From an uncultured Syntrophaceae bacterium (GTDB lineage Bacteria > Desulfobacterota > BSN033 > UBA1163): 63,766 nucleotides of DNA. The position numbers were made by a program, and so were the translations under genes. This document shows positions 198 through 63,125 of the stretch, one piece after another; the first letter of the stretch is position 1; each line of letters starts with the position of its first letter. The stretch lies in the NCBI GenBank assembly GCA_964390545.1, contig CAYMJV010000005.1, positions 1 through 63,766 on the forward strand, read 5' to 3'. The notes under the pieces are model-generated. The model made no database searches. It was not told the DNA's origin and worked only from the letters and a program-made list of their open reading frames with translations.

Positions 198-397
198 ATT
201 CACGAATGATTCGAATGATAGCGAATGTATACAAACGAATCACACAAATGACATCGAATCTCACGAATAAGAATGAATTCACCCCGTAACGACGCAACCT
301 CGATTCCTTTCTCGCAAACGGTATATGATATTCGTGCTATTCGTTGCCATTCGTGTTATTTGTCATAAAATATTCGTGTCATTTGCCGTCATTCGTC
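198..397. repeat. Periodic inverted-repeat element, CGAAT/ATTCG type
   Basis: Left arm has repeated CGAAT; right arm has repeated ATTCG; sits between ftsB and the radical SAM gene. Confidence 0.75.
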
Positions 398-703
398 CTA
401 TTTGCCTTTTGAATTTTTTTTGTCGTCCGGGGAATCAAACTGATAAATGACCTCTCCCTCTTTCACCATCCCCAACTCTTTCCGGGCGATTTCTTCAATA
501 TAGCGCTTTTCATACTGTAGCCGTTTCACTTCTTCCCTTAGTTTCTGGTTCTCTTCCTCTATCTTTACATTCGCCTCTTTGATCCGGCCCCATTCCTTCT
601 GAAGACGAAGAAGATGGACAATTCCCTTGTCTCCAAAAAAAGTGAAAAATCCGAAAATTAAAAAGAGAAAAAGGACCAAAATGAGAATTCGCTTCTTGCT
701 CAT
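398..703 (-). CDS. ftsB: Septum formation initiator FtsB/DivIC family
   Basis: N-terminal TM helix, coiled coil, C-terminal IEEIARKELGMVKEGE motif. Confidence 0.85.
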   Translation of the reverse strand: MSKKRILILVLFLFLIFGFFTFFGDKGIVHLLRLQKEWGRIKEANVKIEEENQKLREEVKRLQYEKRYIEEIARKELGMVKEGEVIYQFDSPDDKKNSKGK

Positions 704-707
704 CTCG

Positions 708-1532
708 TTACTGGAGTTTAAATTTGATGGGAATCATGCCCCACTCCTCCACGGGAGGTTGATCTTTGGGCAACGGAGCGAATCGCCATTGTTTCAAATA
801 TTGGATGGCCAAGCGTTCAAGCTCTGCATCCCCTTTCACGGAAGGGATGGCACGATCGACGATCCCGCTGGGCAATACCCAAAAGGTCAATTCAATTTCT
901 GTCTCCACTCGTACCTTAATTTGCGGAAGCGGTGGCCTTTCCAAGATTTTTCGAGCGGCGAGAGGTCCCTTGATTCCCAATTGTAAGTTCTCCTCAAGAG
1001 GCTTTCCTATTGAAGGTTTTTCCCTCGAGCTCAAGAGCCCCTCAACGATCTTCTCCGTCCCCTTATCCTTTCGAGGGGGCAACTCCAAGGCCTCCTTGAG
1101 GGATGGCATCGGAGATTCTGGGTTGAAGAGATCTTCCTTCTGTTTCAAATATTCCACCAACACCTTCTCGATCTCCTTAAACTCAGGAGAATTCCTAAAA
1201 GCTTTCATCCTCTCCTCTTCCGAAGTCCCCTCCAATTTCTTCGGACGGGGATATTCTGGAACCAGGGATTTCCAATCTTGACTGGCCTTGGCCTCCTCCA
1301 TTTTCTTGAGGATGACCTCTTCCCTGATTCGTTTCTCCTCAGGAGGGATTTCTTGCTTCCCCCATCCCAATAACCTCCTGCTTTCCCTGTTCAGTGCCTC
1401 CCATCTTTCCTCCATGAAGGTCCGAAACGCAGGGGTTGACAGGAAAAGCAATGCCAGGAAACCTAGGAGAACAAGGATCAGGGCGATCAGGAGGGGAACA
1501 AACCGCCGCTCTCGCTTCGGCTTTTCTTTCAT
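708..1532 (-). CDS. Membrane-anchored protein with C-terminal TonB_C-like domain
   Basis: Basic N-terminus plus TM helix; C-terminal IELTFWVLPSGIV...LERLAIQYLKQWRFAP resembles TonB/TolA C-domains. Confidence 0.7.
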   Translation of the reverse strand: MKEKPKRERRFVPLLIALILVLLGFLALLFLSTPAFRTFMEERWEALNRESRRLLGWGKQEIPPEEKRIREEVILKKMEEAKASQDWKSLVPEYPRPKKLEGTSEEERMKAFRNSPEFKEIEKVLVEYLKQKEDLFNPESPMPSLKEALELPPRKDKGTEKIVEGLLSSREKPSIGKPLEENLQLGIKGPLAARKILERPPLPQIKVRVETEIELTFWVLPSGIVDRAIPSVKGDAELERLAIQYLKQWRFAPLPKDQPPVEEWGMIPIKFKLQ

Positions 1533-5345: not shown

Positions 5346-8300
5346 TTATCCCGATGGATTTGTCTCAGCTCCCTTGGCCACTTCACGTTTCGTGTGTTTG
5401 CCAAAGGTTTTTTGGATCATCACATAGAAGAGCGGCGCAAAGATGGTCACCAGGAAGGTGGAGGTAACCACTCCCCCCAGCACCGCAGTGCCGATGGCCT
5501 TTTGGGCGCCTGCGCCCGCCCCGGTGGCAAACGCCATCGGCATCACGCCGAATCCGAAGGCCAAAGAAGTCATGATGATGGGACGCAGCCTCAGCTTCGC
5601 CGCTTCCACTGTAGCCTCGATCAGCCCCATTCCTTCTTCCACCCGGGCCTTTGCGAACTGCACGATCAGGATGGCGTTCTTGGTGGTCAGGCCGAGAGTG
5701 GTCAACAGCCCGATCTGGAAATAGACGTCATTGGGCAACCCCCGTAGAGTCGAACCGATCACGCCGCCGATGGCTCCCAGGGGCAGGGCCATCAGGATCG
5801 AAATGGGGATAGGCCAGCTCTCATACAGGGCCGCCAGGCACAGGAAGATTACCAGAATGGAAAAGGCATAGAGGGGGACTGTCTGAGCGCCAGCCTGCCG
5901 TTCCTGATAGGAAAGCCCGGTCCAGTCAGACCCGATCCCCTGCGGCAATTTCTTGACGAAGCCTTCCATGGCTTGCATCGCCTCGCCGGAACTTCTCCCC
6001 GGAGCCGATTCGCCCAAAATGTTTATAGATGGAAAGCCGTTGAAGCGCTCTAGCTTCGGAGAACCGGAAGTCCAGTGCCCGGACGCAAAGGAAGAAAAAG
6101 GAACCATCTTGCCCGCGTTGTTGCGCACATGAAGTCTTTTCAGATCCTCGGGCAACATGCGGTAGGGGGCGTCGGCCTGGGCATACACCCTCTTCACACG
6201 TCCGCCTTGAATGAAGTCATTGATATAGGCGCTGCCGAAGGCCGCCGAGATTGTGTTGTGGATGGAGGTGATGGGTACTCCCAACGCGCCAGCTTTCTCC
6301 CAATCCACGTCAATCCGATACTCGGGCATGTCTTCCAGTCCGTTGGGCCGGACCTTGGTCAAGACCGGGTCTTTCGCCGCCATGCCGAGAAGCTGGTTGC
6401 GAGCTGCCATCAGCTCGGCGTGGCCTAGACCACCCCGGTCCAACAACTGAAAATCAAACCCCTTGGACATGCTCAGTTCGACGACGGCTGGCGGCGGAAA
6501 GACAAACACCATGGCATTGCGGATTTTTGAAAATTTCCCCATTGCTCTTCCGGCCACGGCACCAACCTTGAGCTCCGGCCGGTTGCGGAGTTCCCAGTCC
6601 TTGAGCTTGACGAATGACATACCCGTATTCTGTCCCCGGGCGCCGAAGCTAGCCCCGGAAAGCGTCATGCACGATGCCACCGCATCTTTCTCGTCCTTCA
6701 GAAAATAGTCTTTGACCGCCTCCATGACCTTTTCGGTCTGCTCCAGGGTCGAGTTCGCCGGAAGCAAGACCTGTACTAACAGGGTTCCCTGATCTTCATC
6801 CGGGAGATAGGCGGTAGGCATCCGACTAAACAGGAAGCCTCCCGCTGCCACGATCAGAATAAATATAATCACATAGCGGATCTTCTTGGCAAGGGATTGA
6901 CCCACCAGTTGCAGATATTGATCTCTGGCCCGAAAAAAGAGGTGGTCAAACCATCTGAAGAACGGTCGCAGAAACCAGATGCCCCCCTCTGTGGCTTCAT
7001 GCCCCTTGGGCACCGGCTTGAGAAAGGATGCGCACAACACCGGCGTCAGGATCAAGGCCACCACCACCGAAAGAAGCATGGAGGCGATGATGGTTACGGA
7101 GAACTGGCGGTAGATGACCCCCGTGGACCCTGCGAAAAAAGCCATTGGGCCGAAGACTGCCGAGAGCACTAACCCAATGCCGATCAGCGCGCTGGTGATC
7201 TGGTCCATGGACTTGCGGGTGGCTTCTTTTGGCGAAAGGCCTTCCTCGCCCATGATGCGTTCCACGTTTTCCACCACCACGATGGCGTCGTCCACCAGGA
7301 GGCCGATTGCCAAGACCATGGCGAACATGGTCAGCATGTTGACGGAGAACCCGAAAAGCCCCAGCACCGCAAAAGTCCCCAGGAGCACCACCGGCACCGC
7401 AATGGTCGGAATCAGGGTGGCCCGCATGTTCCCCATGAACAGGTACATCACCAGAAAAACCAGCAGGATCGCCTCTAAAAGGGTCTTAACCACCTCGATG
7501 ATCGCCGCCCTGACAAAGGGCGTGGTGTCAAAGGGATAAATGACCTTCATTCCGGTGGGAAAGAAATGGCTCATCTCTTCCATCTTGGCCCTGATGGCCT
7601 TCGACGTATCCAGGGCATTGGCGCCGGCCGCCTGCCGAATGGCCAGCGCGGCGGCGGGTTTGCCATCGTATTTTGCGTTCATATCATAGAACTCAGTCCC
7701 CAGCTCTGTCCGCCCCACATCCTTGACCCGCACGATGGAGCCATCCGGGTTGGTGCGCAGCGGGATCGCGGCAAACTCTCCGGGTGTCTTGAGCAGGGTC
7801 TGGACATTGATGCTGGCATTCAAGCGCTGTCCTTCCACCGCCGGCGCCCCCCCAAACTGCCCTGCTGAGACTTCCACGTTGTAGGCCCGAAGTGCCGTAA
7901 TCACATCTTGAACCGTCATCTGGTAATCGGTCAACTTGTCGGGGTTCAGCCAAATTCGCATCGCATACTGGCTGCCGAACGTCTCCACCTCGCCTACCCC
8001 CGGCACTCGCGAAAGCACCTTCTCCAGGTTGGACTGGGCATAGTCCATTAGGTCACTGCTGTCCATACTGCCATCTTCTGAAATCAAGCCCACCATCACC
8101 AGGTAGTTTCGGGTTGACTTGCTCACCTTCACGCCTTGGCGCTGCACCACCTCCGGCAAACTCGCCATGGCGAGCTGGAGCTTGTTTTGCACCTGGGCCC
8201 AGGCCAGGTCCGGATCGGTGCCCGGGGCAAAGGTCAGCTCAACGCGGGAAGCACCGGACGAATCACTGCTAGAGGAAAGATACAGCATCTTGTCGAAGCC

Positions 8301-8525: not shown

Positions 8526-9863
8526 TTAATTCGATTTTTTGGCCGGCTGGGCCGTCTCTTTGGGTGCTGTACCACTTGTTCCACGATCCTGAAACGGGAG
8601 AACCTTTACAGAGGTGCCGGGCCGCACTTTTTGGACACCCTCAACGATCACCTGCTCGCCGGGCTTGAGACCTGAGGAAACAAGCCATTTGTCACCGATG
8701 GCTCGATCGACCGTGATCATCCGCTGTTGGACTTTGCTCGAGTCATCCACAATCAGGGCGACGGCATTCCCCTTCGGGTCGCGGGAGACTCCTTGCTGGG
8801 GGACAACAATTGCTCTATCGATCTCCCCTTCCTGTACAACGGCACGCACGTACATGCCAGGCAAGAGAATCTGTTTTGGGTTCGGAAAGATCATCCGGAG
8901 GATAAAGGATCCGGTGCTTGGATCAACCGTGACCTCGGAGAACTTCAGGGCTCCTTCCAGCGGATAGGGCGTGCCGTCTTCAAGAAGTAACTTCACTCGT
9001 GCCCGGTCGGTACCGGTGCCTTTGATCCGACCAGATGCCATGTTCCGTTTGACCTGCAGCAGGGTGGCACTTGACTGTGTCGCGTCCACATAAATCGGAT
9101 CCAGCTGTTGGATGGTTGCGAAGGCGGAATCTTGAAACGCTTTTGCGAGAGCGCCTACGGTCACGTTGGATTTTCCGATTCGCCCACTAATCGGGGCTGT
9201 GATCCGGGTGTATTCCACATTGATCTGAGCCGTCTTTAGCGCCGCTTCCGCCTGTGGGATGGCAGCTTCGGCCGCGGCCACTGCTTCCCGGTCGTTCTGT
9301 ACCTGTGCCTCTGCGACCCGTAGTGCAGCCTCGGCTACTTCGGCCTCGGTTACGGCCTGGTCACGCTGGCTGGCGGAGACGGATTTGCCCTTGAACAGCT
9401 CCTCGAAGCGCCAGCGGTTTGTCCGGGCAAGCTCCAGGGTGGCCCGCTGCCGCGTGACACTCGCAATGCTCGCTTCCAGTGACGCCCGCGCACGGTCTGG
9501 AGCCTTCTTCACGACAGCAAGGTTTGCGGCTGCATTGTCGTACGCCGCTTGAAAGGCGGCGGGGTCGATTTGATAGAGGACTTGACCAGCTTTCACATCA
9601 GAGCCTTCGTCGAATAGCCGTTTCTGAATGATGCCATTCACTTGAGGACGGATCTCCGCAACAAAGTAGGCGGATGTGCGACCTGGCAATTCGGTGGTTA
9701 GCACGACCCGTTCCGGCTGGACTGTCGCAATGGAAACCTCGGGGATGGCAGGCGGCGGAGCAGCCTGCTTCGAGCCACAACCAGACGTTATCAGTCCCAA
9801 GACAAGTAACCCCATGGCGGCAATTCGTTTGATCCTGTCATTGATTTTCATATAACACCTCAT
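8526..9863 (-). CDS. acrA: RND periplasmic adaptor (AcrA family), lipoprotein
   Basis: Lipobox ITSGC; EIRPQVNGII and ITAPISGRIG motifs; long alpha hairpin. Confidence 0.92.
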   Translation of the reverse strand: MRCYMKINDRIKRIAAMGLLVLGLITSGCGSKQAAPPPAIPEVSIATVQPERVVLTTELPGRTSAYFVAEIRPQVNGIIQKRLFDEGSDVKAGQVLYQIDPAAFQAAYDNAAANLAVVKKAPDRARASLEASIASVTRQRATLELARTNRWRFEELFKGKSVSASQRDQAVTEAEVAEAALRVAEAQVQNDREAVAAAEAAIPQAEAALKTAQINVEYTRITAPISGRIGKSNVTVGALAKAFQDSAFATIQQLDPIYVDATQSSATLLQVKRNMASGRIKGTGTDRARVKLLLEDGTPYPLEGALKFSEVTVDPSTGSFILRMIFPNPKQILLPGMYVRAVVQEGEIDRAIVVPQQGVSRDPKGNAVALIVDDSSKVQQRMITVDRAIGDKWLVSSGLKPGEQVIVEGVQKVRPGTSVKVLPFQDRGTSGTAPKETAQPAKKSN

Positions 9864-10537: not shown

Positions 10538-10586
10538 ACCCCCACCCAAACCCTCCCCCTTGAGGGGGAGGGGTGGGTGGGGGGGA
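10538..10586. repeat. GC-rich REP-like hairpin (CCCTCCCCCT..AGGGGGAGGG family)
   Basis: Palindrome; related copies near 48084-48125 and 59051-59080. Confidence 0.6.
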
Positions 10587-12427: not shown

Positions 12428-13168
12428 ATGAAAAACAAGCTGCTTGCCATCATCCTCGTTTTCATTTTCTTACTTTTCCTTGCTCATTGCACGGAAAGGA
12501 AAAGGGCCTCCGACTCAAGCCCTAAAGGAGATTATAAAACCATGCGGGAAGGGATGGTTGAGACACAGATAAGGGCGAGGGGAGTGAAAGAGCCCCGTGT
12601 TCTTGCGGCCATGCTCAAGGTGGAGCGCCACCTTTTCGTTCCCAAAGATCTTCATCCCAGTGCCTATTCAGATCAACCGCTTCCTATCGGAGAAGGTCAG
12701 ACCATCTCCCAACCCTATATCGTCGCCTTGATGACGGAGCTTCTGGACCTTAAGGAAGAGGAGAGGGTTCTGGAGGTAGGAACCGGATCAGGTTATCAGG
12801 CGGCCATTCTCGCTGAACTGGCCAAAGAAGTTTACACCATCGAAATCATCAAAAAGCTCGCCACCTCTGCCGAAAAACTACTTCTCGATCTGGGTTATAA
12901 GAACATCAAAGTGAAGGCGGGAGATGGATATCTGGGGTGGCCTGAAGCAGCCCCCTTCGACGCCATCATCGTCACCTGTGCGCCAGACCATATCCCAAGG
13001 CCTCTGATGGACCAGTTGAGGGAAGGAGGTCGGATGGTGATTCCGGTCGGAGAATTTAACCAGGAGTTAAAAAAGATTGTCAAACGGGGCGGAAAACTTG
13101 AAACAACGAATGTCATCCCAGTCATCTTCGTTCCCATGACCGGGGAGGGAGTGAAGAAGAAAGAGTGA
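12428..13168 (+). CDS. pcm: Protein-L-isoaspartate O-methyltransferase with N-terminal signal-like extension
   Basis: GQTISQPYIV, VLEVGTGSGYQAA and APFDAIIVT motifs. Confidence 0.93.
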   Translation: MKNKLLAIILVFIFLLFLAHCTERKRASDSSPKGDYKTMREGMVETQIRARGVKEPRVLAAMLKVERHLFVPKDLHPSAYSDQPLPIGEGQTISQPYIVALMTELLDLKEEERVLEVGTGSGYQAAILAELAKEVYTIEIIKKLATSAEKLLLDLGYKNIKVKAGDGYLGWPEAAPFDAIIVTCAPDHIPRPLMDQLREGGRMVIPVGEFNQELKKIVKRGGKLETTNVIPVIFVPMTGEGVKKKE

Positions 13169-13169: not shown

Positions 13170-13310
13170 GGGGAGATAGGGAGAATAAAACAGAATGCAG
13201 TAGGCAGTATGCAGAAGATAGAGAACAGAAGGCAGGACGCAGGAGAGAGAAGATACAAAGCAGAAAGCAATAGGCAGTAAGCAGCAAGCCTCAGCCTAAA
13301 CCTTAACCTT
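13170..13310. repeat. Two facing half-elements: purine-rich AGCAG/AGGCAG arm and AGGTT-type arm
   Basis: Roughly 7-nt periodic array directly after the pcm stop, and TAAGGTTAAGGTTTAGGCTGAGG directly after the rarA stop on the minus strand. Confidence 0.65.
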
Positions 13311-16852: not shown

Positions 16853-17032
16853 CAAAATGTCAAATGCCAAAATCCCTGCCTACCGGCAGGCAGGCAAATG
16901 CCCAATGAATGTCAAATTTCAAAATCCAAAGTTTTTCATATTTGAACTTTGGATTTGATTTGAACTCTGATCTTTGACATTTGGCATTTTCAGAAGCAGC
17001 AAATTCGATATTCGAATTTCGTATCTCCAAAT
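16853..17032. repeat. Periodic inverted-repeat element, CAAAT/TTTG type, carrying a 20-nt palindromic insert
   Basis: CAAA-nnn heptamers versus TTTG-nnn heptamers; CCTGCCTACCGGCAGGCAGG inserted at 16875-16894. Confidence 0.85.
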
Positions 17033-18693: not shown

Positions 18694-18840
18694 AATGGAA
18701 TATTGGAAAAATGGAATGATGTAGAAGTAAGAGGTTAAGGTTAAGGCTAAGGGTTAGGTTAATTTTCAGAATTTCTCAACCTCAACCTAAGCCTCAACCT
18801 CCCGGTTTTCCAGTTTTCCATTACTCCATGATTCCCATGG
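18694..18840. repeat. Nested periodic inverted repeat: outer GGAAT/ATTCC arms enclosing inner AGGTT/AACCT arms
   Basis: Outer arms about 18694-18720 and 18806-18840; inner arms about 18731-18759 and 18777-18803. Confidence 0.8.
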
Positions 18841-21286: not shown

Positions 21287-21316
21287 TCCCTTTCAGCCCC
21301 GGCTTTGCCGGAGAAA

Positions 21317-21460
21317 TTTCGAAATCCGAATATCGAAATCCGAAACAATTTCAAAATTCGAATGACCAAATTTTCAAACCTATTATTTTTTTCGTTTGAA
21401 ACATTTTGATTTTGAACATTCGGATTTGTTTCGAGTTTCGAGTTTCGTGCTTCGAATTTA
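21317..21460. repeat. Periodic inverted-repeat element, CGAAA/TTTCG type
   Basis: CGAAATC CGAATAT CGAAATC... versus ...TTCGAGT TTCGAGT TTCGTGC TTCGAAT; between sigma and anti-sigma genes. Confidence 0.85.
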
Positions 21461-22751: not shown

Positions 22752-22787
22752 ACCGGATCACCTCCTCCTATTGATAAGACAAACGGA

Positions 22788-22880
22788 ATTATTCGAATGA
22801 TAACAAATTGGGCGAACAGTGCTGATTCTGATTATTCGCATTCGGCTAATTCGCTGCCATTCGTTTCATTTGCAAATGAT
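22788..22880. repeat. Degenerate periodic inverted-repeat element, CGAAT/ATTCG type
   Basis: CGAAT-containing left part and ATTCG-repeated right part, similar to 198-397. Confidence 0.55.
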
Positions 22881-26174: not shown

Positions 26175-26579
26175 ATGAAAGACGAAGAGATAAAAAATAC
26201 ACTTCGAACATGCAAGACCGTCGCCGTGGTGGGCATTTCGCCCAAAGAGGATCGGCCCAGTTATGGGGTTGCATCCTATCTGAAATCGAAAGGCTATCGC
26301 ATCATTCCTGTCCGGCCGGAGGGGGACGAGATCTTAGGCGAGAAGGTTTATCATAGCCTCACGGAAATTCCCAGAGGAATTGAAATCGATGTGGTCGACA
26401 TCTTCAGAAAATCAGAGGACGTCCCTCCCGTGGTGGAGGAGGCCATCCGTCGGGGAGCGAAGGTCGTTTGGATGCAGGAAGGGATTATCAACCAGGAAGC
26501 CTGTGCAAAGGCTAAAAAGGCCGGCTTAAAGGTGGTCATGGACCTCTGCATGAAGAAAGAACATCAAAGGCTTCTTTAA
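26175..26579 (+). CDS. CoA-binding domain protein (YccU-like)
   Basis: VAVVGIS..DRPS, IDVVDIFR, VWMQEG motifs. Confidence 0.9.
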   Translation: MKDEEIKNTLRTCKTVAVVGISPKEDRPSYGVASYLKSKGYRIIPVRPEGDEILGEKVYHSLTEIPRGIEIDVVDIFRKSEDVPPVVEEAIRRGAKVVWMQEGIINQEACAKAKKAGLKVVMDLCMKKEHQRLL

Positions 26580-26715
26580 ATCCCAAACCACAAATACCAA
26601 ATTCCAAATAAATTCCAAATGCCAATTTTCAAATGACCAAAACGATTTTGTTTGGAATTTTGAAATTTGAACATTGTAGATTGTTTGTTATTTGGTGCTT
26701 GGAATTTGGTGCTTG
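26578..26715. repeat. Periodic inverted-repeat element, CAAAT/TTTG type
   Basis: CAAACCA CAAATAC CAAATTC CAAATAA... versus ...TTTGGTG CTTGGAA TTTGGTG; between convergent genes. Confidence 0.85.
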
Positions 26716-43124: not shown

Positions 43125-43328
43125 AATCAACCCTTCGACTATCCCTGGTCTAATCCTTCGACCCCGCTCAGGACGAGCACCCGGGGTTTGCCGCTCGTCC
43201 AGAGACTTCGGCGTGAGCTCAGTCGAACGCTCCGGCCGAAGGCTCAGCCTGCCTGCCGGTAGGCAGGGGTTGATACTGAGCGGCGTTTTTAGCTCCATCC
43301 TAAAAAGCGAGGGTTGTCGCCGTCGAAG
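43125..43328. repeat. Expanded copy of the 23568-23674 repeat with three nested inserts
   Basis: Shared ends AATCAACCC..TTCGACT and GGTTGATACTGAGCGGCG..CCGTCGAAG. Confidence 0.85.
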
Positions 43329-45545: not shown

Positions 45546-45548
45546 TCT

Positions 45549-45650
45549 CTTGATTACTCAGATTTCAAAATAGGATTACACGGATTTTCCTTATGTTTCA
45601 ACGCATTTCCTGTCGGTGTAATCGGTCCTTAATCAGTGTAATCAGAGATT
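45549..45650. repeat. Periodic inverted-repeat element, GATTAC/GTAATC type
   Basis: GATTAC twice on the left and GTAATC twice on the right. Confidence 0.55.
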
Positions 45651-46471: not shown

Positions 46472-46555
46472 AATAAAATTCTTAATCCCAAACATCAATA
46501 ACCAAACAGATTTTACGTGAGGGATTCGTCACCGGCGAATCATGAAAATAAAGGT

Positions 46556-46624
46556 GTCATTCCCGCGCAGGCGGGAATCCAGCATAATATGGAAGAAATG
46601 GATTTCTGCTTTCGCAGGAATGAC
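46556..46624. repeat. REP doublet, GTCATTCC family (copy 3)
   Basis: GTCATTCCCGCGCAGGCGGGAATCCAG ... GGATTTCTGCTTTCGCAGGAATGAC. Confidence 0.85.
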
Positions 46625-46674
46625 AAAAAAGGCACTTTTTATTTTCTACGTAATTGCTTATTGTAGCTTCTAAT

Positions 46675-47927: not shown

Positions 47928-48131
47928 AAATGCAGTTCGGAGTGATTTGTTCGGAGTTCGGAGCAAATAATCACGAAAATAATCGCAAGAAAATCGGAAT
48001 AGGGTTGACCGGTTTGAGGCTGCCATTTAATGGGTGCGGTCACCCTCTCTCCGTCCCCTTATCTCCCCATCTCAAAACCATTGCTCCCCCACCCGCACCC
48101 TCCCCCATCAAGGGGGAGGGGAGCGGAAGGG

Positions 48132-49328: not shown

Positions 49329-49400
49329 ATCATAGCCTCGCCTCTAATCCTTTTATCAACTGCAATATGAACTTGGAGAAATATTGAATGGTGGCTTGAC

Positions 49401-49535
49401 CTAATGCCAAATGCCAAAGTTCAAATGTCAAATGAATGCCAAAATGATTCAATGTCAAAAGTCTTCTTGTCAAATTTTGTCATTTGAGCTTTGGATTTGA
49501 TTTGAACTTTGAGCTTTGACATTTGGAATTTCTAA
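49401..49535. repeat. Periodic inverted-repeat element, CAAAT/TTTG type
   Basis: CAAATGC CAAAGTT CAAATGT CAAATGAA... versus TTTGAGC TTTGGAT TTGA TTTGAAC TTTGAGC TTTGACA. Confidence 0.85.
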
Positions 49536-49537
49536 TT

Positions 49538-52216
49538 TTAGGCTCTTGCCTGTGTTTCTTTAGGGAGGCAGCATTTTTTGTACTTCTTCCCGCTTCCGCA
49601 GGGGCACGGATCATTCCGGCCCACCTTCTTTCCATCCCGGCGTACGGTCACACCCTTTCCACTCTCGGTCTCTCCGCCTGCGGTGACAGCGGGTTCTGCT
49701 CCTCGGCTCAGGAAAAAGGTTTGCCTTTTGGGCAACTTCATCTCTTTGACTTCTTCATCCCTAGCGATTTGAACAGCAAAGAGCTTTTCGATCGTATCCT
49801 TCTTAATGCGGTCTAACATGTCAAGAAACATTTGATAGGCTTCTTTTTGATATTCAATGCGCGGGTCTTTCTGGGCATACCCTCGTAATCCGATCCCTTC
49901 CTTCAACTGATCAATGGCAAAGAGATGATCCTTCCAGTGATGATCGACCGATTGCAGCATGATCACTTTTTCCAGGTATCGAAGCGTGCCTTCGCCAAAT
50001 TCTTCCTCCTTCTTCTGGTAAAGATCCTTTCCTTTCTGCAGAATCATCTCTTTCAGACGATCCCGATTGAGTCCATCTTCCTCCCCTGAGGAAGGTGCCC
50101 ATCGGAAAGAGAACTGCTGGTAAACGGCGTCGGCGAGTCCCTTCAGGTCCCAATCCTCTGGGTGGAGCTTTTCATCTGCATAGAGATCGACAAGCCCTTC
50201 TGTCTGTTCCTCAATCATCTCCATGACAGATTCTTTCAAATCGTCACTCCCCAGAACCTCTCTTCTCTGAGAGTAAATGACTTCTCTCTGCTGGTTCATG
50301 ACATTGTCATACTCCAGAAGTTGCTTCCGGATCTCAAAATTATGGCCCTCCACCCTCCTCTGGGCATTTTCGATAGCTTTGGTAACAAGATTATGTTCGA
50401 TAGGTTGGTCTTCCTCAATTCCCAATCGATCCATGATGCTGGAGATTCTCTCGGAGCCAAAAATTCTTAAGAGGTCATCCTCGAGAGAGAGATAAAAGCG
50501 GGAAGATCCTGGATCACCTTGCCTTCCGGACCGGCCCCTCAATTGATTGTCGATACGCCGGGCTTCATGCCTTTCGGTTCCAATGACATGAAGGCCTCCC
50601 AACTGGGCCACGCTCTCCTTATCCTTTTGAACAATAGCCAGAGCCTTCCCATAGGCTTTCTTCATCGCCTCTTCTGTGGGCTCTCCTTCAACCATGGGTT
50701 TGGACAAGAATTTTGGATTCCCACCCAGAAGGATATCTGTCCCCCTTCCTGCCATATTGGTTGAGAGGGTGACGGCGCCTCCCCTTCCCGCCTGGGCGAT
50801 GATCTCAGCCTCTTGCTCATGATGTTTGGCATTGAGGACATTGTGGGGAATCCCCCGCTTCTTCAACATCTGGCTCAATCGCTCTGATTTCTCGATGGAA
50901 ATGGTCCCGATCAGCGCCGGACGCCCTATTCGATGGAGTTCTTCAATCTCGCGGACAACCGCACGGAACTTCTCGTTCTCCGTTTTATAGATGACATCGG
51001 AATGATTCGTTCGCATCAACGGCATGTTAGTAGGAATGACCACCACGTCGAGGTTGTAAGTCTTCCGAAATTCAGCTGCTTCCGTGTCCGCCGTGCCCGT
51101 CATCCCTGCCAACTTCTTATACATCCGAAAGTAGTTCTGAAAAGTGATCGTGGCCAGGGTTTGATTCTCGTTTTCTATTCGAACATTCTCTTTCGCTTCC
51201 ACCGCCTGATGGAGGCCATCGCTCCACCTCCTCCCGGGCATGAGCCTCCCGGTAAATTCATCTACGATCACCACCTCGCCTTCCTTCACCACATAGTCTA
51301 CATCCCTTTTGAATAAGGTATGAGCTCTCAAAGCTTGATTCACATGATGGAGGGTCTCAATATTTCTGGGGTCATAGAGATTCTCAACATGAATTAGCTT
51401 TTCGACATGACCGACACCCTCTTCCGTCAGAAAGGCTGTGTGACTCTTCTCCTCCAACTGATAATCCTTCCCCTGCTTCAGGGAGGGGATGATGCGGTTG
51501 ATCTTGTAATACTTATCCGTGGACTCCTCGGCCGGGCCGGAGATGATCAGGGGCGTCCTCGCCTCATCGATCAGGATGCTATCCACCTCATCGACAATGG
51601 CATAGTTCAAATCCCTCTGGACATAATCTTCGATGCTGAACTTCATGTTGTCCCGGAGGTAATCAAATCCGAATTCATTGTTCGTCCCGTAGGCGATATC
51701 ACAACCGTAGGCCTTCTTTCTCTCCTGGTCATTTAACTCGTGGAGGATCACTCCCACCGAGAGGCCTAGAAACCTGTAGATCGCTCCCATCCATTCACTA
51801 TCTCTTTTTGCCAGGTAGTCATTCACCGTCACAATATGGACGCCTTCCCCCTTGAGCCCGTTCAAATAAGCAGGAAGGGTGGACACCAAGGTTTTACCTT
51901 CTCCAGTCGCCATTTCGGAAATCTTGCCTTCGTGAAGGACAATCCCTCCGATGAGCTGCACATCGTAGTGCCGCTCACCCAGCGTCCTTCTGGCTGCCTC
52001 GCGAACGACAGCGAAAGCCTCAGGGAGGATCTCCTCCAGTGATTCCCCTCGATCGATCCGTTCTTTTAATTCCGAGGTTTTGGTCCGGAGTTGACCATCC
52101 GTCAAAGGCCGCACCTGGGGCTCCAGTGCATTGATCCGTTGAATCATCGGTCGGATCCTCTTCAACTCCCTCTCGTTCTTACTTCCCACAATCTTTTTAA
52201 TCAGTGACCCAATCAT
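49538..52216 (-). CDS. secA: Preprotein translocase ATPase SecA
   Basis: [33 protein letters not shown]-terminal SEC-C motif [17 protein letters not shown]; start reassigned to MIGSLIK. Confidence 0.98.
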
Positions 52217-52233
52217 GAAACCCTTCACCCTGA

Positions 52234-52318
52234 TCATTGGAATGATGGAATATTGGAAGGGTGGAATCATGGGGCTATATTCGACAAACCCAAAATTCCA
52301 TTCATCCACTATTCTGGA
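52234..52318. repeat. Periodic inverted-repeat element, GGAAT/ATTCC type
   Basis: TTGGAAT GATGGAA TATTGGAA GGGTGGAATC versus ATTCCATTCATCCACTATTC. Confidence 0.7.
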
Positions 52319-55013: not shown

Positions 55014-55026
55014 GGATTAATTAAGC

Positions 55027-55231
55027 TCCAATAACCAAATTCCAATAGCCAAATAATCACCAATGACCAAATAACCAATAGCCAACCGATTATCTGTGAT
55101 TTACAAAACGAGTTTGATTATTGGCCATTGAAATTTTGGTTATTGTTTGATTATTGCCTGCCCCGCACCGCTCTGGTGCGGGGGTGCTTGCCCTGCACCA
55201 TGTTAGGTGCAGGGCTTGGAATTTGGTTATT
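55027..55231. repeat. Periodic inverted-repeat element, CCAAT/ATTGG type, with two GC-rich hairpin inserts in the right arm
   Basis: Inserts GCCCCGCACCGCTCTGGTGCGGGG and GCCCTGCACCATGTTAGGTGCAGGGC interrupt the TTGG heptamer array. Confidence 0.8.
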
Positions 55232-55240
55232 GCCATATCC

Positions 55241-56272: not shown

Positions 56273-56353
56273 CAGCAAACTCCTTCTCAAAGATTTAAGA
56301 TTATTAATCAGTCCATAATAATAACTACATTGTTTTATAAAATCCCTCCTCAC

Positions 56354-56415
56354 CTCCCTTTTCCAAAGGGAGGAACAATACCCCTCTTTGGAAAAGAGGG
56401 GTTAGGGGAGATTTT
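56354..56415. repeat. REP-like hairpin cluster (CCCCTCTTTGGAAAAGAGGGG family)
   Basis: Related to 27916-27952, 59949-59988 and 63590-63640. Confidence 0.6.
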
Positions 56416-56513
56416 CAGAAGAATAAGTCTCCTCTATTATAGACTGATTAATATGTCTTACCCTTTCGCCCCTTCTTCTAAATCCTCAATGATCAATTAT
56501 CAATGATCATTGT

Positions 56514-57986
56514 TCATTGCCCATTGGTCGTTTGAGGGGGGTTGGGAGGATGAGTACCAGACCATCGGAGATGAAAGGGCAGGTAGAAAATCCTGAGATC
56601 AAAAGACTCCCCATCCCTCCGATACAAAAACAGCCCTTTCAGAAGAGAGACGCTCTTCACTCCATTCCATTTTTTAACACCGATCAGGTGAGCGACCTCC
56701 CAGTAGTCCAATCCCTCTTTCTCCATCTTTATGTACAATCCCCAAAGGAGATTGGTGGAAATCCCTTTCGGAGGATCCTTCTCCCAGCGGTAGATTCGAA
56801 ACAGGGGAAAAAAATTCCTTTCAAGCCCTTCTTCCTTAAATGGGAAAAGATAGAAGACGTTGAGGATCTCGTGACCCCCTTCTTCCCTTTCATAATCATA
56901 GATGGGCCAGATTCGAATGGATTCCCCTTTCTCTCTTCCCTGAGGACCCTCGCCCGTTCGTATGCGGCTGAATAAGATGCGATAGGTCGTCTCATGGAAA
57001 TCTGTCAGCCAGTCCTCCTCATATTGATAGAAGGGATAGAGGATGAAGACCCTCTTCGACTCTCCCTCTCTCACCTTATAACCATAAAAAAGGAAGAATC
57101 TCTTCCCGTAGAGGTTTTCCCCTTTGAAGGTCCGAAAAAGAGGCCAGGGCAGATCCCACTGTTCGAAACCTGTGCGCTCCTCTTTGGCATGGGAGAAGAG
57201 TGGCCACAGAATGGTCTTGCTGTAGAAATATTTGGATTCCTTTGAAATATAAAAGGGAAAAACCATCCATTCATCCGTCGGATCATCTGTATCCAATCCT
57301 TTTGTCTTTTTCACGAAGATGGGCCACAAAAGAAAGGCTTGCGTTGAAACCCCAACCTCCTCCTTTCTCCCGTAGATGGGCCAGATTCGGTACCCTTTCT
57401 TCTTCTCGCCGCTCGTGGAGGAGACAAAGGGCCAAAGGAAGTTTTGGGTACGAACGCCTTCTGAGAGCGAATCCGAATAGAGGGGCCAGAGATAAAAATG
57501 GATTTCATCCTTACCATATCGTTTCAGAAGTGTACCGAAAAGGGGGAAGAGACCGAAATAATCTTCTCTCTCTTCCGTCTCTCCAATAAAGAAAGGGAAG
57601 AATTGAAAATCCCATTTCTCCTTTCCATCGAACGTCTGATCCCTGTAGGAAGAAAGCGGGAAGAGGTATCCCTTTTCATCATCGCCCTTGATTTGATATT
57701 TTCCGAATGGATAAAGAAACTCTAATCTCTTCAGACCCTCGTCTTCATCCCTCGTCCAGTAAAAAAAGGGACGAAACCCCCACCCCCTTCGACCCGATTC
57801 CTTTTTCAAGTGGAAGAGAGGACCTAATCCCTCGGCCTCACTTATTCCTTCCACCGGGTCAGACGTATAATGGAAAAAGGGCCAGAAATTGATCGTGACC
57901 GGTCTCTCGCCTGCTAGGGAAGGAAAAGGGATGACGGAAAGAAAGAGGATTACCGTCAACAAGAAAAATTGCTTTCGGATTATCAT
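56514..57986 (-). CDS. Exported protein with about 19 aromatic-Pro-aromatic repeats (for example LWPLY, FFPFF)
   Basis: Signal peptide ending SLA; repeats spaced roughly 15-20 aa apart; directly downstream of mlaD. Confidence 0.8.
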   Translation of the reverse strand: MIIRKQFFLLTVILFLSVIPFPSLAGERPVTINFWPFFHYTSDPVEGISEAEGLGPLFHLKKESGRRGWGFRPFFYWTRDEDEGLKRLEFLYPFGKYQIKGDDEKGYLFPLSSYRDQTFDGKEKWDFQFFPFFIGETEEREDYFGLFPLFGTLLKRYGKDEIHFYLWPLYSDSLSEGVRTQNFLWPFVSSTSGEKKKGYRIWPIYGRKEEVGVSTQAFLLWPIFVKKTKGLDTDDPTDEWMVFPFYISKESKYFYSKTILWPLFSHAKEERTGFEQWDLPWPLFRTFKGENLYGKRFFLFYGYKVREGESKRVFILYPFYQYEEDWLTDFHETTYRILFSRIRTGEGPQGREKGESIRIWPIYDYEREEGGHEILNVFYLFPFKEEGLERNFFPLFRIYRWEKDPPKGISTNLLWGLYIKMEKEGLDYWEVAHLIGVKKWNGVKSVSLLKGLFLYRRDGESFDLRIFYLPFHLRWSGTHPPNPPQTTNGQ

Positions 57987-59985: not shown

Positions 59986-60765
59986 TTAAAACAGAAATGC
60001 TGTAATAAAATAATTTGAGATTAATATCGTTAGAGATGAGACAACAACAGCCTTGGTCGTCGCCCGGCCCACTCCTTCAGCTCCCCCTTCCGCTGAAAAT
60101 CCCTGATAGCAACTGATGGTGGCTATGATCATGCCGAACACAACAGCCTTCAGCAGGCCGCTATAAAGGTCGCTAAATTCCAGATAATTCCATGTTCTCC
60201 GAATGTAGATCGTCGGATTGGCTCCCAGAATTTGAACGCTCACCAGATACCCACCCAGAATGCCGATAACATCAGCAAAGATGACGAGCACGGGGAGCAT
60301 GATCGACGCAGCTAAGAATCTCGGAACGATCAGATATTTGATCGGGTTGGTGGCCAGCGTATAAAGGGCATCTATCTGTTCCGTCACTCGCATCGTTCCA
60401 AGTTCGGCAGCCATTGCAGAACCCACCCGGCCAGAGACCATCAATCCTGTTAAGACGGGGCCCAATTCCCTTGTGACGGACAGAGCGACGACGGTCCCTA
60501 CCATCGTCTCCGCGCCGAACCGTTTAAATCCGGTATAACTCTGTAAAGCCAGGACCATTCCTGTAAAAGCGGCCGTGATGATGACCACCGGAAAGGACCG
60601 AACACCCACCTCTTGCATCTGTTTTATTATTTCTCTCCCTTGAAGCGGAGGCCGAAAGGTCCAGCTCAGGGTCTTCGCAAAGAGGATCATGATCCGTCCT
60701 GCTTCCTCTGCGAACCGTATTGATTGAATTCCAATCCATCGAAACAGATTCAAGAGAACCCCCAT
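59986..60765 (-). CDS. mlaE: MlaE-type ABC permease
   Basis: RELGPVLTGL, AAELGTMRVTEQIDAL, GAEGVGRATT motifs. Confidence 0.95.
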   Translation of the reverse strand: MGVLLNLFRWIGIQSIRFAEEAGRIMILFAKTLSWTFRPPLQGREIIKQMQEVGVRSFPVVIITAAFTGMVLALQSYTGFKRFGAETMVGTVVALSVTRELGPVLTGLMVSGRVGSAMAAELGTMRVTEQIDALYTLATNPIKYLIVPRFLAASIMLPVLVIFADVIGILGGYLVSVQILGANPTIYIRRTWNYLEFSDLYSGLLKAVVFGMIIATISCYQGFSAEGGAEGVGRATTKAVVVSSLTILISNYFITAFLF

Positions 60766-60769
60766 CACG

Positions 60770-60895
60770 AAATGCAATGTCAAAGTCCAAAATCAAAATT
60801 CCAAATGAATGTCAAATATCAAAAATTTTCCAAATGATTTGAAATTTAAACATTTGGATTTCATTTGAACTTTGAACTTTGTCATTTGAAATTTA
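60770..60895. repeat. Periodic inverted-repeat element, CAAAT/TTTG type
   Basis: Same arm layout as 16853, 26578 and 49401; between alr and mlaE. Confidence 0.85.
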
Positions 60896-62038
60896 TAATT
60901 TTCCCTTATAGATCCTTGGAATTCTTTTCCCTATAGAACAGAACACTTCATACGAGATGGTATTCATCCTATCTGCCATCTCCTCCGCCGTGATGATCTC
61001 CTTCCCCTGGCTTCCGATCAAAACGACTTCATCTCCTAATGAAACCTTGGGAATATCTGTTACGTCCACCATGATGAAATCCATGCAAACCTTTCCCACG
61101 ACAGGGGCCCTCTTCCCCCGGACCAACACTTCTCCTCGATTGGAGAGGTAGCGACTGTACCCATCTGCATATCCAATGGGAAGGGTGGCGATGAGGCTTT
61201 CTCTCCTGGTCACAAAGGTCCCTCCATAACTGATCCTGAATCCAGAAGGGACGGACTTTAAGAAATGGATGCGAGTCCTTAGGGTCATCACGGGCTTGAG
61301 GTGAATGAGGCTCTTCAACACGGGAGAGGGATAAGCCCCATAAAGCATGATCCCTGGCCGAACCAGATTCCCGGAATAGTAAGAAGAGGTTGTGAGCAAG
61401 GCACTGCTGGCCATATGAACGTATTTGCAACGAATTCCTAATTCTTCAGCACACCTCACCGCCCCTAGAAATTGATCCCATTGATGTTTGGTATAATCTT
61501 CCTCGCTCATCATAGAAAAATGGGAGAGAATGCCTTCGACTTCAACTTTTGGGAAATGAGGGATCTCTTTTAGAAAATTGGGCCAGAGAGATAAGGGGAC
61601 GCCCAACCGCCCCATCCCTGTATCCACTTTGAGGTGAACCCTTACCTTCTTCTTTCCTCTTTGGGCTACTTTGGAGATGAACTTCAAGGCCTCCTTATGA
61701 AAAACAACAGGAGTGAGGTCGAACCGAAAAATCTTTTCAATATCTCCATCATAAATTCCACCCAGGACAAGGATCGGCGCCCTCACTCCTCCTTTTCTCA
61801 GCTCCACCCCTTCTTCCGCAATGGCAACACCCAGATACTCGACTCCTAATTTCTCCAACTTACGAGAGATCGGAACGGCTCCATGACCATAGGCATCCGC
61901 CTTTACAACGGCCAGGATTTTTACTCCTTTCGGGACCCTCTTTTGAAGTTGTCGATAGTTAAAGGCAAGGGCATCCAGGTCGATCTGTGCGATCGTTGGC
62001 CTTCCGGGCGTTAGAGATAAATTTCTCTTGAGGTTCAT
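60893..62038 (-). CDS. alr: Alanine racemase
   Basis: AVVKADAYGHG, KVDTGMGRLG, PIGYADGY motifs. Confidence 0.97.
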   Translation of the reverse strand: MNLKRNLSLTPGRPTIAQIDLDALAFNYRQLQKRVPKGVKILAVVKADAYGHGAVPISRKLEKLGVEYLGVAIAEEGVELRKGGVRAPILVLGGIYDGDIEKIFRFDLTPVVFHKEALKFISKVAQRGKKKVRVHLKVDTGMGRLGVPLSLWPNFLKEIPHFPKVEVEGILSHFSMMSEEDYTKHQWDQFLGAVRCAEELGIRCKYVHMASSALLTTSSYYSGNLVRPGIMLYGAYPSPVLKSLIHLKPVMTLRTRIHFLKSVPSGFRISYGGTFVTRRESLIATLPIGYADGYSRYLSNRGEVLVRGKRAPVVGKVCMDFIMVDVTDIPKVSLGDEVVLIGSQGKEIITAEEMADRMNTISYEVFCSIGKRIPRIYKGKL

Positions 62039-62173: not shown

Positions 62174-62202
62174 TTGACAATCCAACCTTAATCCAGTAAC
62201 CT
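62174..62202 (+). promoter_or_regulatory. Sigma-70 promoter of thiF
   Basis: TTGACA-N17-TAACCT; predicted start site falls at the GTG codon. Confidence 0.6.
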
Positions 62203-62209
62203 GAGCCAT

Positions 62210-63049
62210 GTGAAAGAAAACGCTTCATCGATTGACATTAAAGTCAATGAGAAAGAGGTTTCTGTCTCTTCCAAGACGACCCTTCACCAATTGAAAAAAA
62301 GGTTCAACCCGAAGGCCGACGTCATCATCTATAACGGCTTCCCCCTGACCTCAGATCATATCCTCACAGCGGGTGATGAGATCGTCTTCATTCAAAAGGG
62401 TCACCTTCCCTCTCCCGAACAATTTGAATGCCTTCTCCTCGCAAGGCATACCCCGGGGGTCCACCAAAAAATAAAGGGATCGGTCGTTGGGATTGCCGGA
62501 CTGGGTGGCCTCGGGTCGGCGGTAGCCATTGCCTTAACTCGCATAGGCGTGGGGACCCTTATTCTTGTTGATTTCGACGTGGTAGAGCCCTCCAATTTGA
62601 ATCGTCAGCAGTATTTCACCCATCAGGTCGGGATGCCTAAGGTCGAAGCCCTCCGTGAAAATCTCTCGAGAATCAACCCCTATGTAAGAATCCAAACCTA
62701 CCCTGAGAAGCTGGACCGGAATAACGTGGAGCGCATCTTCAAGAAAGCCATGGTGGTCGTGGAGGCCTTCGATCGGGCTGAAGAGAAAGCCATGCTGATC
62801 AACGTCCTGTCCGAGAAAATGCCAGAGACATACATTGTGGCGGCCTCCGGCGTGGCTGGTTACGGGGATAATAATGAGATTAGAACGACCCGGTTTTCTT
62901 CAAAGATATTCATCGTGGGAGATCAGAGGACGGCCGCTCAGCCGGGGGTGGGGCTCATGGCGCCGAGAGTAGGCATCGCTGCTCATCATCAAGCGAACCT
63001 TGTTTTGAGAATCCTATTGGGGGAAGAAAAGAACAATAATTCGGAGTAA
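62210..63049 (+). CDS. thiF: ThiF-family adenylyltransferase with N-terminal ThiS-like domain
   Basis: GIAGLGGLGS, DFDVVEPSNLNRQ, VEAFD motifs; ubiquitin-like N-terminal segment. Confidence 0.88.
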   Translation: MKENASSIDIKVNEKEVSVSSKTTLHQLKKRFNPKADVIIYNGFPLTSDHILTAGDEIVFIQKGHLPSPEQFECLLLARHTPGVHQKIKGSVVGIAGLGGLGSAVAIALTRIGVGTLILVDFDVVEPSNLNRQQYFTHQVGMPKVEALRENLSRINPYVRIQTYPEKLDRNNVERIFKKAMVVVEAFDRAEEKAMLINVLSEKMPETYIVAASGVAGYGDNNEIRTTRFSSKIFIVGDQRTAAQPGVGLMAPRVGIAAHHQANLVLRILLGEEKNNNSE

Positions 63050-63125
63050 TTAGTTAGGAGTTAGGAGTCATCATTTGAAAGTTTCGTTTGAATCTCCGAA
63101 CTCTGAACTCCGAACTCATTACTGC
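63041..63125. repeat. Periodic inverted-repeat element, GGAGT/ACTC type
   Basis: GGAGTAA TTAGTTA GGAGTTA GGAGTCA versus CCGAACT CTGAACT CCGAACT CATTACT. Confidence 0.7.

Follow-up and report, generated by a model that had tools for sequence, protein, structure and literature searches.

What are the short repeats that fill many of the spaces between genes in an uncultured Syntrophaceae bacterium? The question is raised by 63,766 nucleotides of its DNA (contig CAYMJV010000005.1 of GenBank assembly GCA_964390545.1, positions 1 to 63,766 of the forward strand), referred to here as the window. About 15 dispersed elements lie in it, typically paired inverted arrays of degenerate heptads, mostly NNN-C[A/G/C]AA against its complement, around a short centre. 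An earlier note, made from the letters of this DNA, took them for elements conserved in shape and register but not in sequence, either structured and spread in trans or serving as periodic protein-binding or RNA-processing sites. On balance, we lean towards non-autonomous intergenic DNA repeats resembling repetitive extragenic palindromic (REP) elements and MITEs (miniature inverted-repeat transposable elements), in which the heptad arrays are the constrained feature and are probably recognised by a protein.

The periodicity far exceeds that of randomised sequence. With a periodic tract defined as a self-match of at least 60% at a given lag, the window contains 16 tracts at lag 7 against 1.9 in Markov shuffles, an approximately 8-fold excess, and 15 at lag 14 against 1.55. 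The remaining enriched lags are multiples of 3, i.e., coding periodicity. Tandem Repeats Finder reports period-7 or period-14 arrays at 13257, 21315-21459, 26591, 49403/49483, 55027-55085, 56486, 60781/60837 and 63052/63094. All 15 sites lie between open reading frames (ORFs), as the earlier note had it, and the flanking ORFs have Pfam-supported housekeeping functions. When RNA folds are compared with dinucleotide shuffles, about 10 of the 15 sites form long imperfect hairpins (z -2.8 to -7.1) and three short sites fold weakly; the stems span 30-60 bp, are A/T-rich and are merely about 70-80% Watson-Crick. Two arrays have one arm, one site has a period of 8-9 nt and another has no clear 7-nt periodicity. 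Across 80 related loci, a partner that is the reverse complement lies no more than 260 nt from a heptamer array in 35 cases (score at least 16) and in none under a complement-only control for composition; the inverted layout is therefore not a by-product of composition. Core motifs differ among the window copies, as first reported. The sites, each named by the position under which it was originally listed, are as follows.

Site 198, 202..396: CGAAT-type inverted arrays, left arm 202-269 and right arm 329-396 around a centre of 59 nt; period 8-9 nt, not 7; 50/67 Watson-Crick; z -2.8 (222-371); downstream of a DivIC-like gene, 398-703(-).
Site 13170, 13178..13308: one-armed array of about 17 GCAGNAG-type heptamers, then a short CCTTAAC-type tract; complementary arm absent; flanked by convergent PCMT and MgsA genes.
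Site 16853, 16854..17026: CAAAT-type hairpin at the CbiQ/ABC ATPase junction; z -5.3 (16848-16995); residual CGAA-type outer arm at 17003-17026.
Site 18694, 18697..18835: nested hairpin with outer GGAAT/ATTCC and inner GGTTAAG/CTCAACC arms; z -7.1 (18690-18835); flanked by flavin reductase and amidohydrolase genes.
Site 21317, 21314..21460, minus strand: canonical CGAAAT-type element at an ECF sigma/anti-sigma junction, reading AAATTCGAAGCACGAAAC...TTGTTTCGGATTTCGATATTCGGATTTCG in family orientation on the minus strand; z -4.2 (21314-21462).
Site 22788, 22787..22870: short, weak CGAAT-type inverted arrays upstream of a hexapeptide transferase gene; 21/30 Watson-Crick; z -1.2 (22783-22880).
Site 26578, 26578..26714, minus strand: CCAAAT-type element between convergent PFK and CoA-binding genes; z -3.2 (26580-26716).
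Site 45549, 45546..45648: GATTAC/GTAATC hairpin between divergent genes; z -4.3 (45545-45650); 7-nt periodicity unclear.
Site 47933, 47936..47963: one-armed GTTCGGA array of about 3 units, following the gene 47457-47927.
Site 49401, 49403..49530: CAAAT-type hairpin at the SecA/ArgJ junction; z -4.5 (49398-49536).
Site 52234, 52236..52314: short GGAAT/ATTCC inverted arrays upstream of SecA; z -1.9 (52232-52312).
Site 55027, 55029..55235: CCAAT/CCAAAT-type hairpin with arms 55029-55059 and 55115-55145; z -6.3 (55024-55150); its right flank (about 55157-55222) holds 2 nested GC-rich hairpins and then a final ATTTGGTTATTG unit.
Site 56486, 56487..56526: short CAATGAT/ATCATTG palindromic heptamer array; z -1.6 (56480-56530).
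Site 60770, 60776..60893: CAAAT-type hairpin at the alanine racemase/MlaE junction; z -3.3 (60768-60903).
Site 63041, 63038..63130: GGAGT/ACTCC hairpin where ThiF-like and acetyltransferase genes converge; z -3.0 (63038-63122).

Six of these sites are related to one another in sequence. In blastn comparisons, the paralogues 16853, 49401 and 60770 are interlinked at 73-87% identity, the right arm of 49401 being 87% identical to 16853 over 63 nt. Site 26578 matches two copies in the related locus L012 (84% over 122 nt and 81% over 136 nt), and site 21317 matches copies in L013, L024, L027 (two copies) and L066. An nhmmer profile built exclusively from foreign copies recovers 21314-21460 (E 5e-33), 26578-26714 (2e-12), 16913-17026 (6e-5), 49407-49530 (1e-4), 55036-55148 (1.5e-3) and 60764-60891 (3e-3). 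The six copies (16853, 21317, 26578, 49401, 55027 and 60770) are homologues within one family; for this core of the collection, the notion that shape and register, and not sequence, are what is conserved is wrong. Some blastn matches run the full length of the element and connect non-orthologous sites, both inside a genome and from one genome to another. A match outside this group links site 45549 to a copy in L028 (80% identity over 101 nt); where that copy lies with respect to the anchor gene suggests that the two sites are not orthologous.

The family extends well beyond the window. More than 120 metagenome contigs among the matches listed, with G+C contents of 35-66%, contain TTGTTTCGGATTTCGRTATT, a stretch of 20 nt taken from the right arm of 21317. 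Almost all of these CGAAAT-type copies follow one plan: a left outer arm AAATYCGAAGCACGAAATCCGAAATTCGAAACAA, CAAAT-like inner arms, a short loop and a right outer arm TTGTTTCGGATTTCGATATTCGGATTTCGGATTT. The right arm was fixed by the search pattern and the left arm was free, and the 33-nt left outer arm is kept in the 35-66% G+C contigs. Typical copies are about 140 nt long, with 75-125 nt from arm to arm in 49 of 59 cases; outer arms are conserved and inner arms variable, and two copies 550 nt apart in L161 have a common loop. The persistence of this A/T-rich sequence inside contigs of 65% G+C (L116 and L221) points to constraint at the level of sequence or to recent spread. At the PFK/CoA-binding junction, where window and L012 are orthologous, the hairpins are 84% identical; PFK itself is 82% identical as a protein and 49% identical at third codon positions. 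Viral contigs yielded only 4 matches, and a plasmid blastn search yielded none, although its low-complexity filter may mask the query. The literature searched by characteristic strings and heptamer terms contained no description of the element.

The alignment of site 26578 to the CGAAAT profile is full-length; all outer CGAA units carry C for G, and all TTCG units carry G for C. What looked like an "interchangeable core" is therefore one conserved template, altered concertedly. In L130, a hybrid copy combines a CCAA-type left arm with a TTCGG-type right arm. The shared break in the 7-nt phase was reported for five best copies (16853, 21317, 26578, 49401 and 60770), and all five left arms do contain one 10-11-nt C[ACG]AA spacing among others of 6-8 nt. 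The corresponding 4-5-nt TT[TCG]G spacing exists in four right arms and not in that of 60770, where the computed spacings are 15, 1, 10, 7, 7 and 7. In 21317 and 26578 the break is the family's CGAAACAA/TTGTTTCG junction, which is invariant in alignment A2 of copies selected for that junction; in 16853, 49401 and 60770 it is a AATGAATG segment common to three close paralogues. The phase break is an inherited sequence feature. The purine/A-rich arm leads in 12 of 13 two-armed window copies, a property unchanged by reverse complementation; what had been stated for the complete window copies loosens across the wider loci, where this arm comes first in 19 of 25 cases and the 6 exceptions belong to distant lineages.

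The elements behave symmetrically with respect to strand. Their orientation relative to flanking genes is unbiased (28 same, 20 opposite), and no sense-strand G·U excess emerges from the counts of G·T versus A·C, which are 27 v 19 for the window elements and, for 28 foreign copies from tandem contexts, 77 v 74. Inner-arm complementarity is 10.5 within copies and 11.0 between copies, i.e., copy-specific covariation is absent. RNAalifold predicts 13 pairs from 35 CGAAAT copies, and its covariation is uninformative because all 13 are invariant through copy selection. No Rfam family matches the window elements at E ≤ 1. A consensus scan calls no element a canonical terminator; canonical ones exist nearby. 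A structured-RNA role, as entertained at the outset, is not supported by these comparisons.

Orthologous junctions compared across relatives, as the earlier note had advised, are often empty or differently occupied. The sigma and anti-sigma genes overlap or lie 5-19 nt apart in 14 relatives, cbiQ and its ATPase gene overlap in 9, and the flavin-reductase gene either overlaps the amidohydrolase gene or is separated from it by 10-22 nt in 16. The claim that elements split normally adjacent genes is thereby upheld for the sigma/anti-sigma and cbiQ/ABC-ATPase pairs. Hairpins with three different cores, GGTTACG, CGAAAT and CAGGAAA/CCTGATA, occupy the sigma/anti-sigma junction in L026, L027 and L028. 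The PFK/CoA-binding junction measures about 5 nt in L030 and contains a CCAAAT type in L012 and a CGAAAT type in L013; L012 and L013 are approximately 85-90% identical.

The same exchange is visible between strains. Conspecific contigs, defined as metagenome contigs that encode identical proteins and whose flanks are 98-99.9% identical to the window, show replacement of the whole spacer at 4 of 11 element-bearing sites. The CGAAAT hairpin between the sigma and anti-sigma genes gives way to an unrelated 172-nt spacer in 5 conspecific contigs, and the flavin-reductase/amidohydrolase hairpin to an unrelated spacer of 181 or 208 nt (L002, L004 and L009). At the ThiF/acetyltransferase junction, the GGAGT hairpin is replaced by a 176-nt nested GGAAT hairpin in 9 of 9 spanning contigs; the tenth conspecific contig, L105, begins downstream of the junction. 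Three alleles, of CCAAAT, GTCAAAT and CGGAAT types, coexist at the PFK/CoA-binding junction, and from end to end the GTCAAAT allele shares 78% identity with the element between cbiQ and the ATPase gene. The swaps break at the stop and start codons themselves or a few codons further in. Of the spacers that hold no element, about 8 in the same contigs show no change other than one 15-nt indel. Sites 47933, 45549 and 52234 are also stable in the conspecific contigs compared, as are 49401 (across 8 contigs) and 60770 (across 10, with a 1-nt indel in one), and the 13170 array has gained or lost a unit, one extra heptamer (TTACTGC) being present in L001.

Replacement at two convergent junctions reaches into the coding sequence. 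The PFK C-terminus is ...TIL* in the window and ...TILGTSS* in L232 (window 26577-26725; compared also with L238), and the acetyltransferase ends in ...KELD* in the window and ...KEL* in L098 (window 63031-63135). As the last 1-4 codons and the stop of flanking convergent genes are altered, the elements remodel protein C-termini.

Small palindromes are nested within the larger elements. The following two share a length of 20 nt.

16875..16894: palindrome CCTGCCTACCGGCAGGCAGG within the left arm of 16854..17026.
43248..43267: palindrome CCTGCCTGCCGGTAGGCAGG, second exact copy, within a GCTCAG...CTGAGC hairpin in a divergent intergenic region.

The first is present in the window, L001 and L007 and cleanly missing from L002 and L003, and a related CCCTGCCT...AGGCAGG insert with different centres occupies the same unit position in L023, L138 and L198. 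The alternative flavin-reductase/amidohydrolase spacer (L002 3037-3243, L004 3354-3533) opens with the ancestral 12-nt spacer GTGACAAAAAC and carries an inverted copy of it, GTTTTTGTCA, 70 nt further. The L002 and L004 versions differ by a 27-nt hairpin placed exactly in the loop of a ATCCCGAA...TTCGGGAT hairpin, which looks like growth of a palindrome from its centre.

Taken together, family homology, sequence constraint, strand symmetry, positional turnover, slippage of units, concerted core change and nested palindromes fit a REP/MITE-like reading best, and spread in trans and periodic protein binding, both raised in the earlier note, remain its most plausible components. The elements would be copied into, lost from and exchanged at gene-gene spaces as DNA. 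The heptad arrays, rather than the hairpin, would be under constraint, most likely as iterated sites for a putative trans-acting protein, either a mobilising enzyme or a nucleoid or regulatory protein. Two precedents, both described further below, speak for this reading: arrays of 7-bp heptads in mixed orientation are proven to bind protein in the parS of pSM19035, and Geobacter metallireducens has paired arrays of the same kind. New core types could arise when a point change spreads along one arm by slippage or unequal exchange and then passes to the opposite arm through template switching within the hairpin. Extrusion as a hairpin or cruciform may render the spacers fragile and make them hot spots of replacement; such fragility would explain both the replacement of whole spacers and the small palindromes at arm units and loop tips. 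Effects on mRNA, e.g., insulation or stabilisation between cistrons, would be secondary.

REP elements and bacterial interspersed mosaic elements (BIMEs), REPINs and MITEs such as Correia, RUP and Nezha are short, non-coding, multi-copy intergenic hairpins with lineage subfamilies and presence/absence polymorphism. Like MITEs, the present elements have conserved terminal inverted repeats, a variable non-coding interior, a length (about 100-200 bases) within the roughly 100-400 bp of that class and presence/absence polymorphism, and unlike MITEs they lack target-site duplications and sharp ends. Neither the conserved GTAG-type head of REP and REPIN sequences nor a RAYT (Y1 transposase) is seen among the window elements and genes. 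A REPIN consists of two discrete inverted REP palindromes, whereas the hairpins described here are long, with periodic heptad-array arms of variable unit number. Integron attC sites, which are imperfect R''-L''/L'-R' inverted repeats with a GTTRRRY core in cassette arrays beside intI, do not correspond to the elements: no integrase and no GTTRRRY ends are found, and the elements lie between housekeeping genes.

Cyanobacteria have heptamer arrays named STRR and, lodged in such tandem repeats, very small mobile elements named SDR; both are reportedly the subject of work by Mazel in 1990 and by Elhai and co-workers in 2008. STRR sequences of heterocystous cyanobacteria have the consensus heptamers CCCCAGT, TTGGTCA and CAACAGT, and SDR elements are palindromic insertions of about 20-27 nt, mutually nested and variable between close strains. 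The likeness lies in intergenic heptamer arrays and in inserts comparable to the 20-nt CCTGCC...GGCAGG palindrome and the 27-nt hairpin in a loop, and it is a lead only. STRR repeats differ in phylum and in sequence, the host of the window being a relative of the Syntrophaceae/Thermodesulfobacteriota.

Several observations weigh against the REP/MITE-like reading. Its mobilising or binding protein was found neither in the window nor recurrently beside 124 foreign copies; the window has no transposase, and the neighbours of those copies are generic, with no recurrent family. The window, about 1.2 Mb of related loci and 0.7 Mb surrounding foreign copies yielded no autonomous copy that carries an ORF. 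The earlier note had named long copies enclosing an ORF and Y1_Tnp-like or GIY-YIG genes as candidates; no autonomous copy of that kind turned up, and neither gene type was seen in the window. Target-site duplications (TA or other) are not detected, including at filled versus empty junctions, and element ends are fuzzy, with heterogeneous flanking dinucleotides and variable numbers of end units. Nine of the 15 sites (GGAAT, GGAGT, GGTTAAG, GCAGNAG, GATTAC, CGAAT and CAATGAT types) have no detectable homology to the CGAAAT profile, and a single origin of all types is therefore inferred from architecture alone. The population is recombinogenic, as its mosaic SecA indicates, so that some allele swaps could be imports by homologous recombination. 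Finally, the GGAAT-type alleles of L098 and L099 (1832-2008) preserve pairing through G·U on one strand (10 kept, 4 broken) and not on the other (3 kept, 9 broken), a hint, for that element at least, of a constraint acting on RNA or on a single strand.

These last two points have some further detail. Across the L098/L099 allele, 23 of 177 positions differ, the flanks being 99-99.7% identical. A/G changes in the purine arm, together with C/T changes in the pyrimidine arm, make up nearly all of these differences, which could reflect either G·U-tolerant selection or strand-specific deamination. SecA in L090 is about 77-80% identical to window 49800-52200 over 2.4 kb, next to an ArgJ gene and a hairpin that are 99-100% identical, and the population is a recombination mosaic. 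Homologous-recombination import was considered as the cause of the swaps and set aside, since single-nucleotide polymorphisms (SNPs) do not cluster in the flanks of the 3 swapped junctions checked; elsewhere the population is mosaic.

Long copies are limited to rare versions of 317-419 nt and one case in L053, a Syntrophobacterales metagenome-assembled genome (MAG). There, at 6275-7127, inverted GGATTGC and TCAGGAG heptamer arrays bracket an ORF of 126 aa without a Pfam match, and the left array with about 80 nt recurs at 13069-13161. Here a hairpin element may enclose a gene cassette. Of 122 foreign copies, 44 lie at contig ends, which is to be expected of a repeat present many times.

A bolder proposal, which we put forward tentatively, is that the CGAAAT hairpin and its CCAAAT and CAAAT derivatives are an undescribed, cross-phylum kind of very small mobile DNA. 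It would move without target duplication, directed by hairpins or heptads, preferentially land in or replace resident hairpins exactly between stop and start codons, and have its recognition core rewritten concertedly in both arms. If so, CGAAAT-type hairpins would be a "cassette" system for intergenic DNA served by a putative trans-acting enzyme.

The arrays might instead be double-stranded DNA sites kept for function, each heptad bound by a dimer of a host nucleoid-associated or global regulator and the hairpin being a by-product of dyad arrangement. We consider this rather unlikely, yet several observations suit it: conservation resides in sequence and not in pairing, stems are just about 70-80% complementary, neither orientation nor G·U bias breaks the symmetry of the strands, and the L130 hybrid tolerates one mismatch per unit. 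Precedents exist. On plasmid pSM19035, omega/ParB binds the parS site, contiguous 7-bp units in direct and inverted orientation of which at least 4 are required (PMC9499535). That system is a plasmid partition site with a ribbon-helix-helix protein and a WATCACW core, and the window elements are chromosomal and dispersed, which leaves an analogy of architecture. The closest described system is in Geobacter metallireducens, where "class 1-3 putative global regulator binding sites" are paired intergenic arrays, each made of 3-5 repeats of 7-9 nt in tandem and set on the opposite strand from its partner at a distance of 75-115 bp, at tens per genome; they are present in one species and absent from its relative, and split genes adjacent elsewhere (proBA), and binding of the IHF/HU type was proposed for them as putative (Aklujkar et al. 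2009, PMC2700814).

The G. metallireducens arrangement of paired, opposite-strand, multicopy intergenic arrays is found here as well. Its class-3 motif (ATTCTGA/CTCCTGA, i.e., MTYCTGA) recurs in the related loci L028, L053 and L066, whereas the window cores match none of its consensus motifs GTTGCTYN, TCTCCGTS[Y] and MTYCTGA. Each of those classes has one core; here many cores coexist and replace one another at a single site, and the arms are longer (5-9 units) and contiguous around a short loop. Strain-level replacement, nested palindromes and a type conserved across taxa are likewise undescribed for the G. metallireducens pairs. In Xanthomonas, GGGAATC heptamers form 70-75 intergenic arrays per genome, with convergent pairs able to form stem-loops or cruciforms; the type is preserved as length varies among species, and 83% are positionally conserved between two species (Rehm et al. 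2015, PMC4692102). These have a single G-rich core, studied as a G-quadruplex former, and largely fixed positions, whereas the window cores are A/T-rich without G-tracts and the elements turn over rapidly. Such turnover also counts against sites maintained for a host regulator, for which positional stability is expected, yet the junctions are empty in most relatives and swapped among strains. The many cores in one genome would require many proteins or very loose recognition, and one type spread over contigs of 35-66% G+C suits a travelling element better than a host regulon. Compared with the literature searched, the number of cores per genome, their concerted rewriting, the approximately 140-nt type common to different genomes and the exchange at junctions between near-identical strains appear to be new.

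An RNA function is less probable still. Intercistronic or 3'-end stem-loops could stabilise upstream mRNA, direct its processing or terminate transcription bidirectionally, and an A-rich 5' arm with a U-rich 3' arm is terminator-like. REP elements do stabilise upstream mRNA. The folds are long and stable, the purine/A-rich arm leads whichever strand is read in the window lineage, and foreign copies, classified by crude ORF calls, occupy tandem (48) or convergent (11) contexts and rarely divergent ones (4). The one-strand G·U retention between L098 and L099 belongs with this evidence. Set against it are the absence of a sense-strand G·U excess, of an orientation preference, of copy-specific compensatory change and of any Rfam match. 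The window elements are not short G+C-rich stem-loops followed by a T run, as intrinsic terminators are, and none was called as one. Moreover, they split the sigma/anti-sigma and cbiQ/ATPase pairs, whose members are normally coupled in translation.

Independent microsatellites, made in place by slippage and then inverted duplication and forming neither a family nor a functional class, are very improbable: among the long simple repeats of prokaryotes, heptanucleotides are the most frequent (Mrazek 2007, cited in PMC4679880), one-unit indels and the one-armed arrays 13170 and 47933 fit, and the L002 spacer has an inverted copy of the ancestral 12-nt spacer (TGACAAAAAC...GTTTTTGTCA), but ordered, irregular sequences of 115-150 nt are common to unlinked sites and different genomes, conservation is far above neutral, and different ready-made types occupy one junction in near-identical strains. 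The arms are complementary type by type, the phase break is shared and presence/absence and replacement polymorphism is abundant, the opposite of what the earlier note had expected of microsatellites. For the six homologous copies such an origin is contradicted; it is possible for one-armed and short arrays alone.

Other repeats share the same spaces. G/C-rich palindromes of the CCCTC...GAGGG type, such as CCCCCACCCAAACCCTCCCCCTAGGGGGAGGGGTGGGTGGGGGG, occur at window 10539-10584, 48085-48125, 56339-56415 and 63597-63640, as well as in L001 (3262-3290), L034 and L188, and sometimes adjoin heptamer elements. These palindromes form a second family of dispersed intergenic repeats and belong to the same kind as the "class 4" multicopy sites of G. 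metallireducens, which resemble sequences in many genomes (PMC2700814). An inverted pair, TGTCATTCCCGCGCAGGCGGGAATCCA and TGGATTTCTGCTTTCGCAGGAATGACA, at window 46555-46625 has a weak Rfam match to WsnRNA46 (32.7 bits against a gathering threshold of 65.3), and its GTCATTCCCGCGCAGGCGGGAATCCAG motif adjoins a CGAAAT element in L125 (about 9130-9160); it is probably a third widespread small repeat.

The setting is otherwise ordinary chromosomal DNA, mostly 46-57% G+C in 2-kb steps and 40-42% in an island at 32-36 kb. Its genes are housekeeping in nature and include an AcrB-type pump, a sigma-54 activator, MgsA, an ECF-transporter pair, the ECF sigma/anti-sigma pair, PBP1, PFK, ArgJ, SecA, alanine racemase and MlaEFD (Pfam). 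The best genomic relatives of the amidohydrolase (17817-18659) are at most 78% identical, come from Syntrophaceae/"Thermodesulfobacteriota" MAGs and keep the gene order; on these matches a cyanobacterial origin, suggested at first by the heptamers, was rejected. From 27000 to 45000, 18 kb contain no heptamer element; this stretch covers the lower-G+C block and carries a pilin-like gene, a methyltransferase, an SNase-like gene and a tRNA, 37055-37126(-). It may be a horizontally acquired island that the repeats have yet to colonise.

Inverted heptamer pairs have received passing mention for Geobacter, Xanthomonas and cyanobacteria. The present analysis defines a searchable family, the approximately 140-nt CGAAAT element, on more than 100 contigs of very different base composition. 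It provides direct evidence that whole elements are exchanged at fixed gene junctions on a time scale of 0.1-1% divergence, and the intermediates, i.e., a hybrid-arm copy, one-unit indels and nested palindromes, make the mechanism testable. The elements break metagenome assemblies, about one third of copies lying at contig ends. Because they alter gene termini and split operon partners, they matter for the annotation of uncultured anaerobes.

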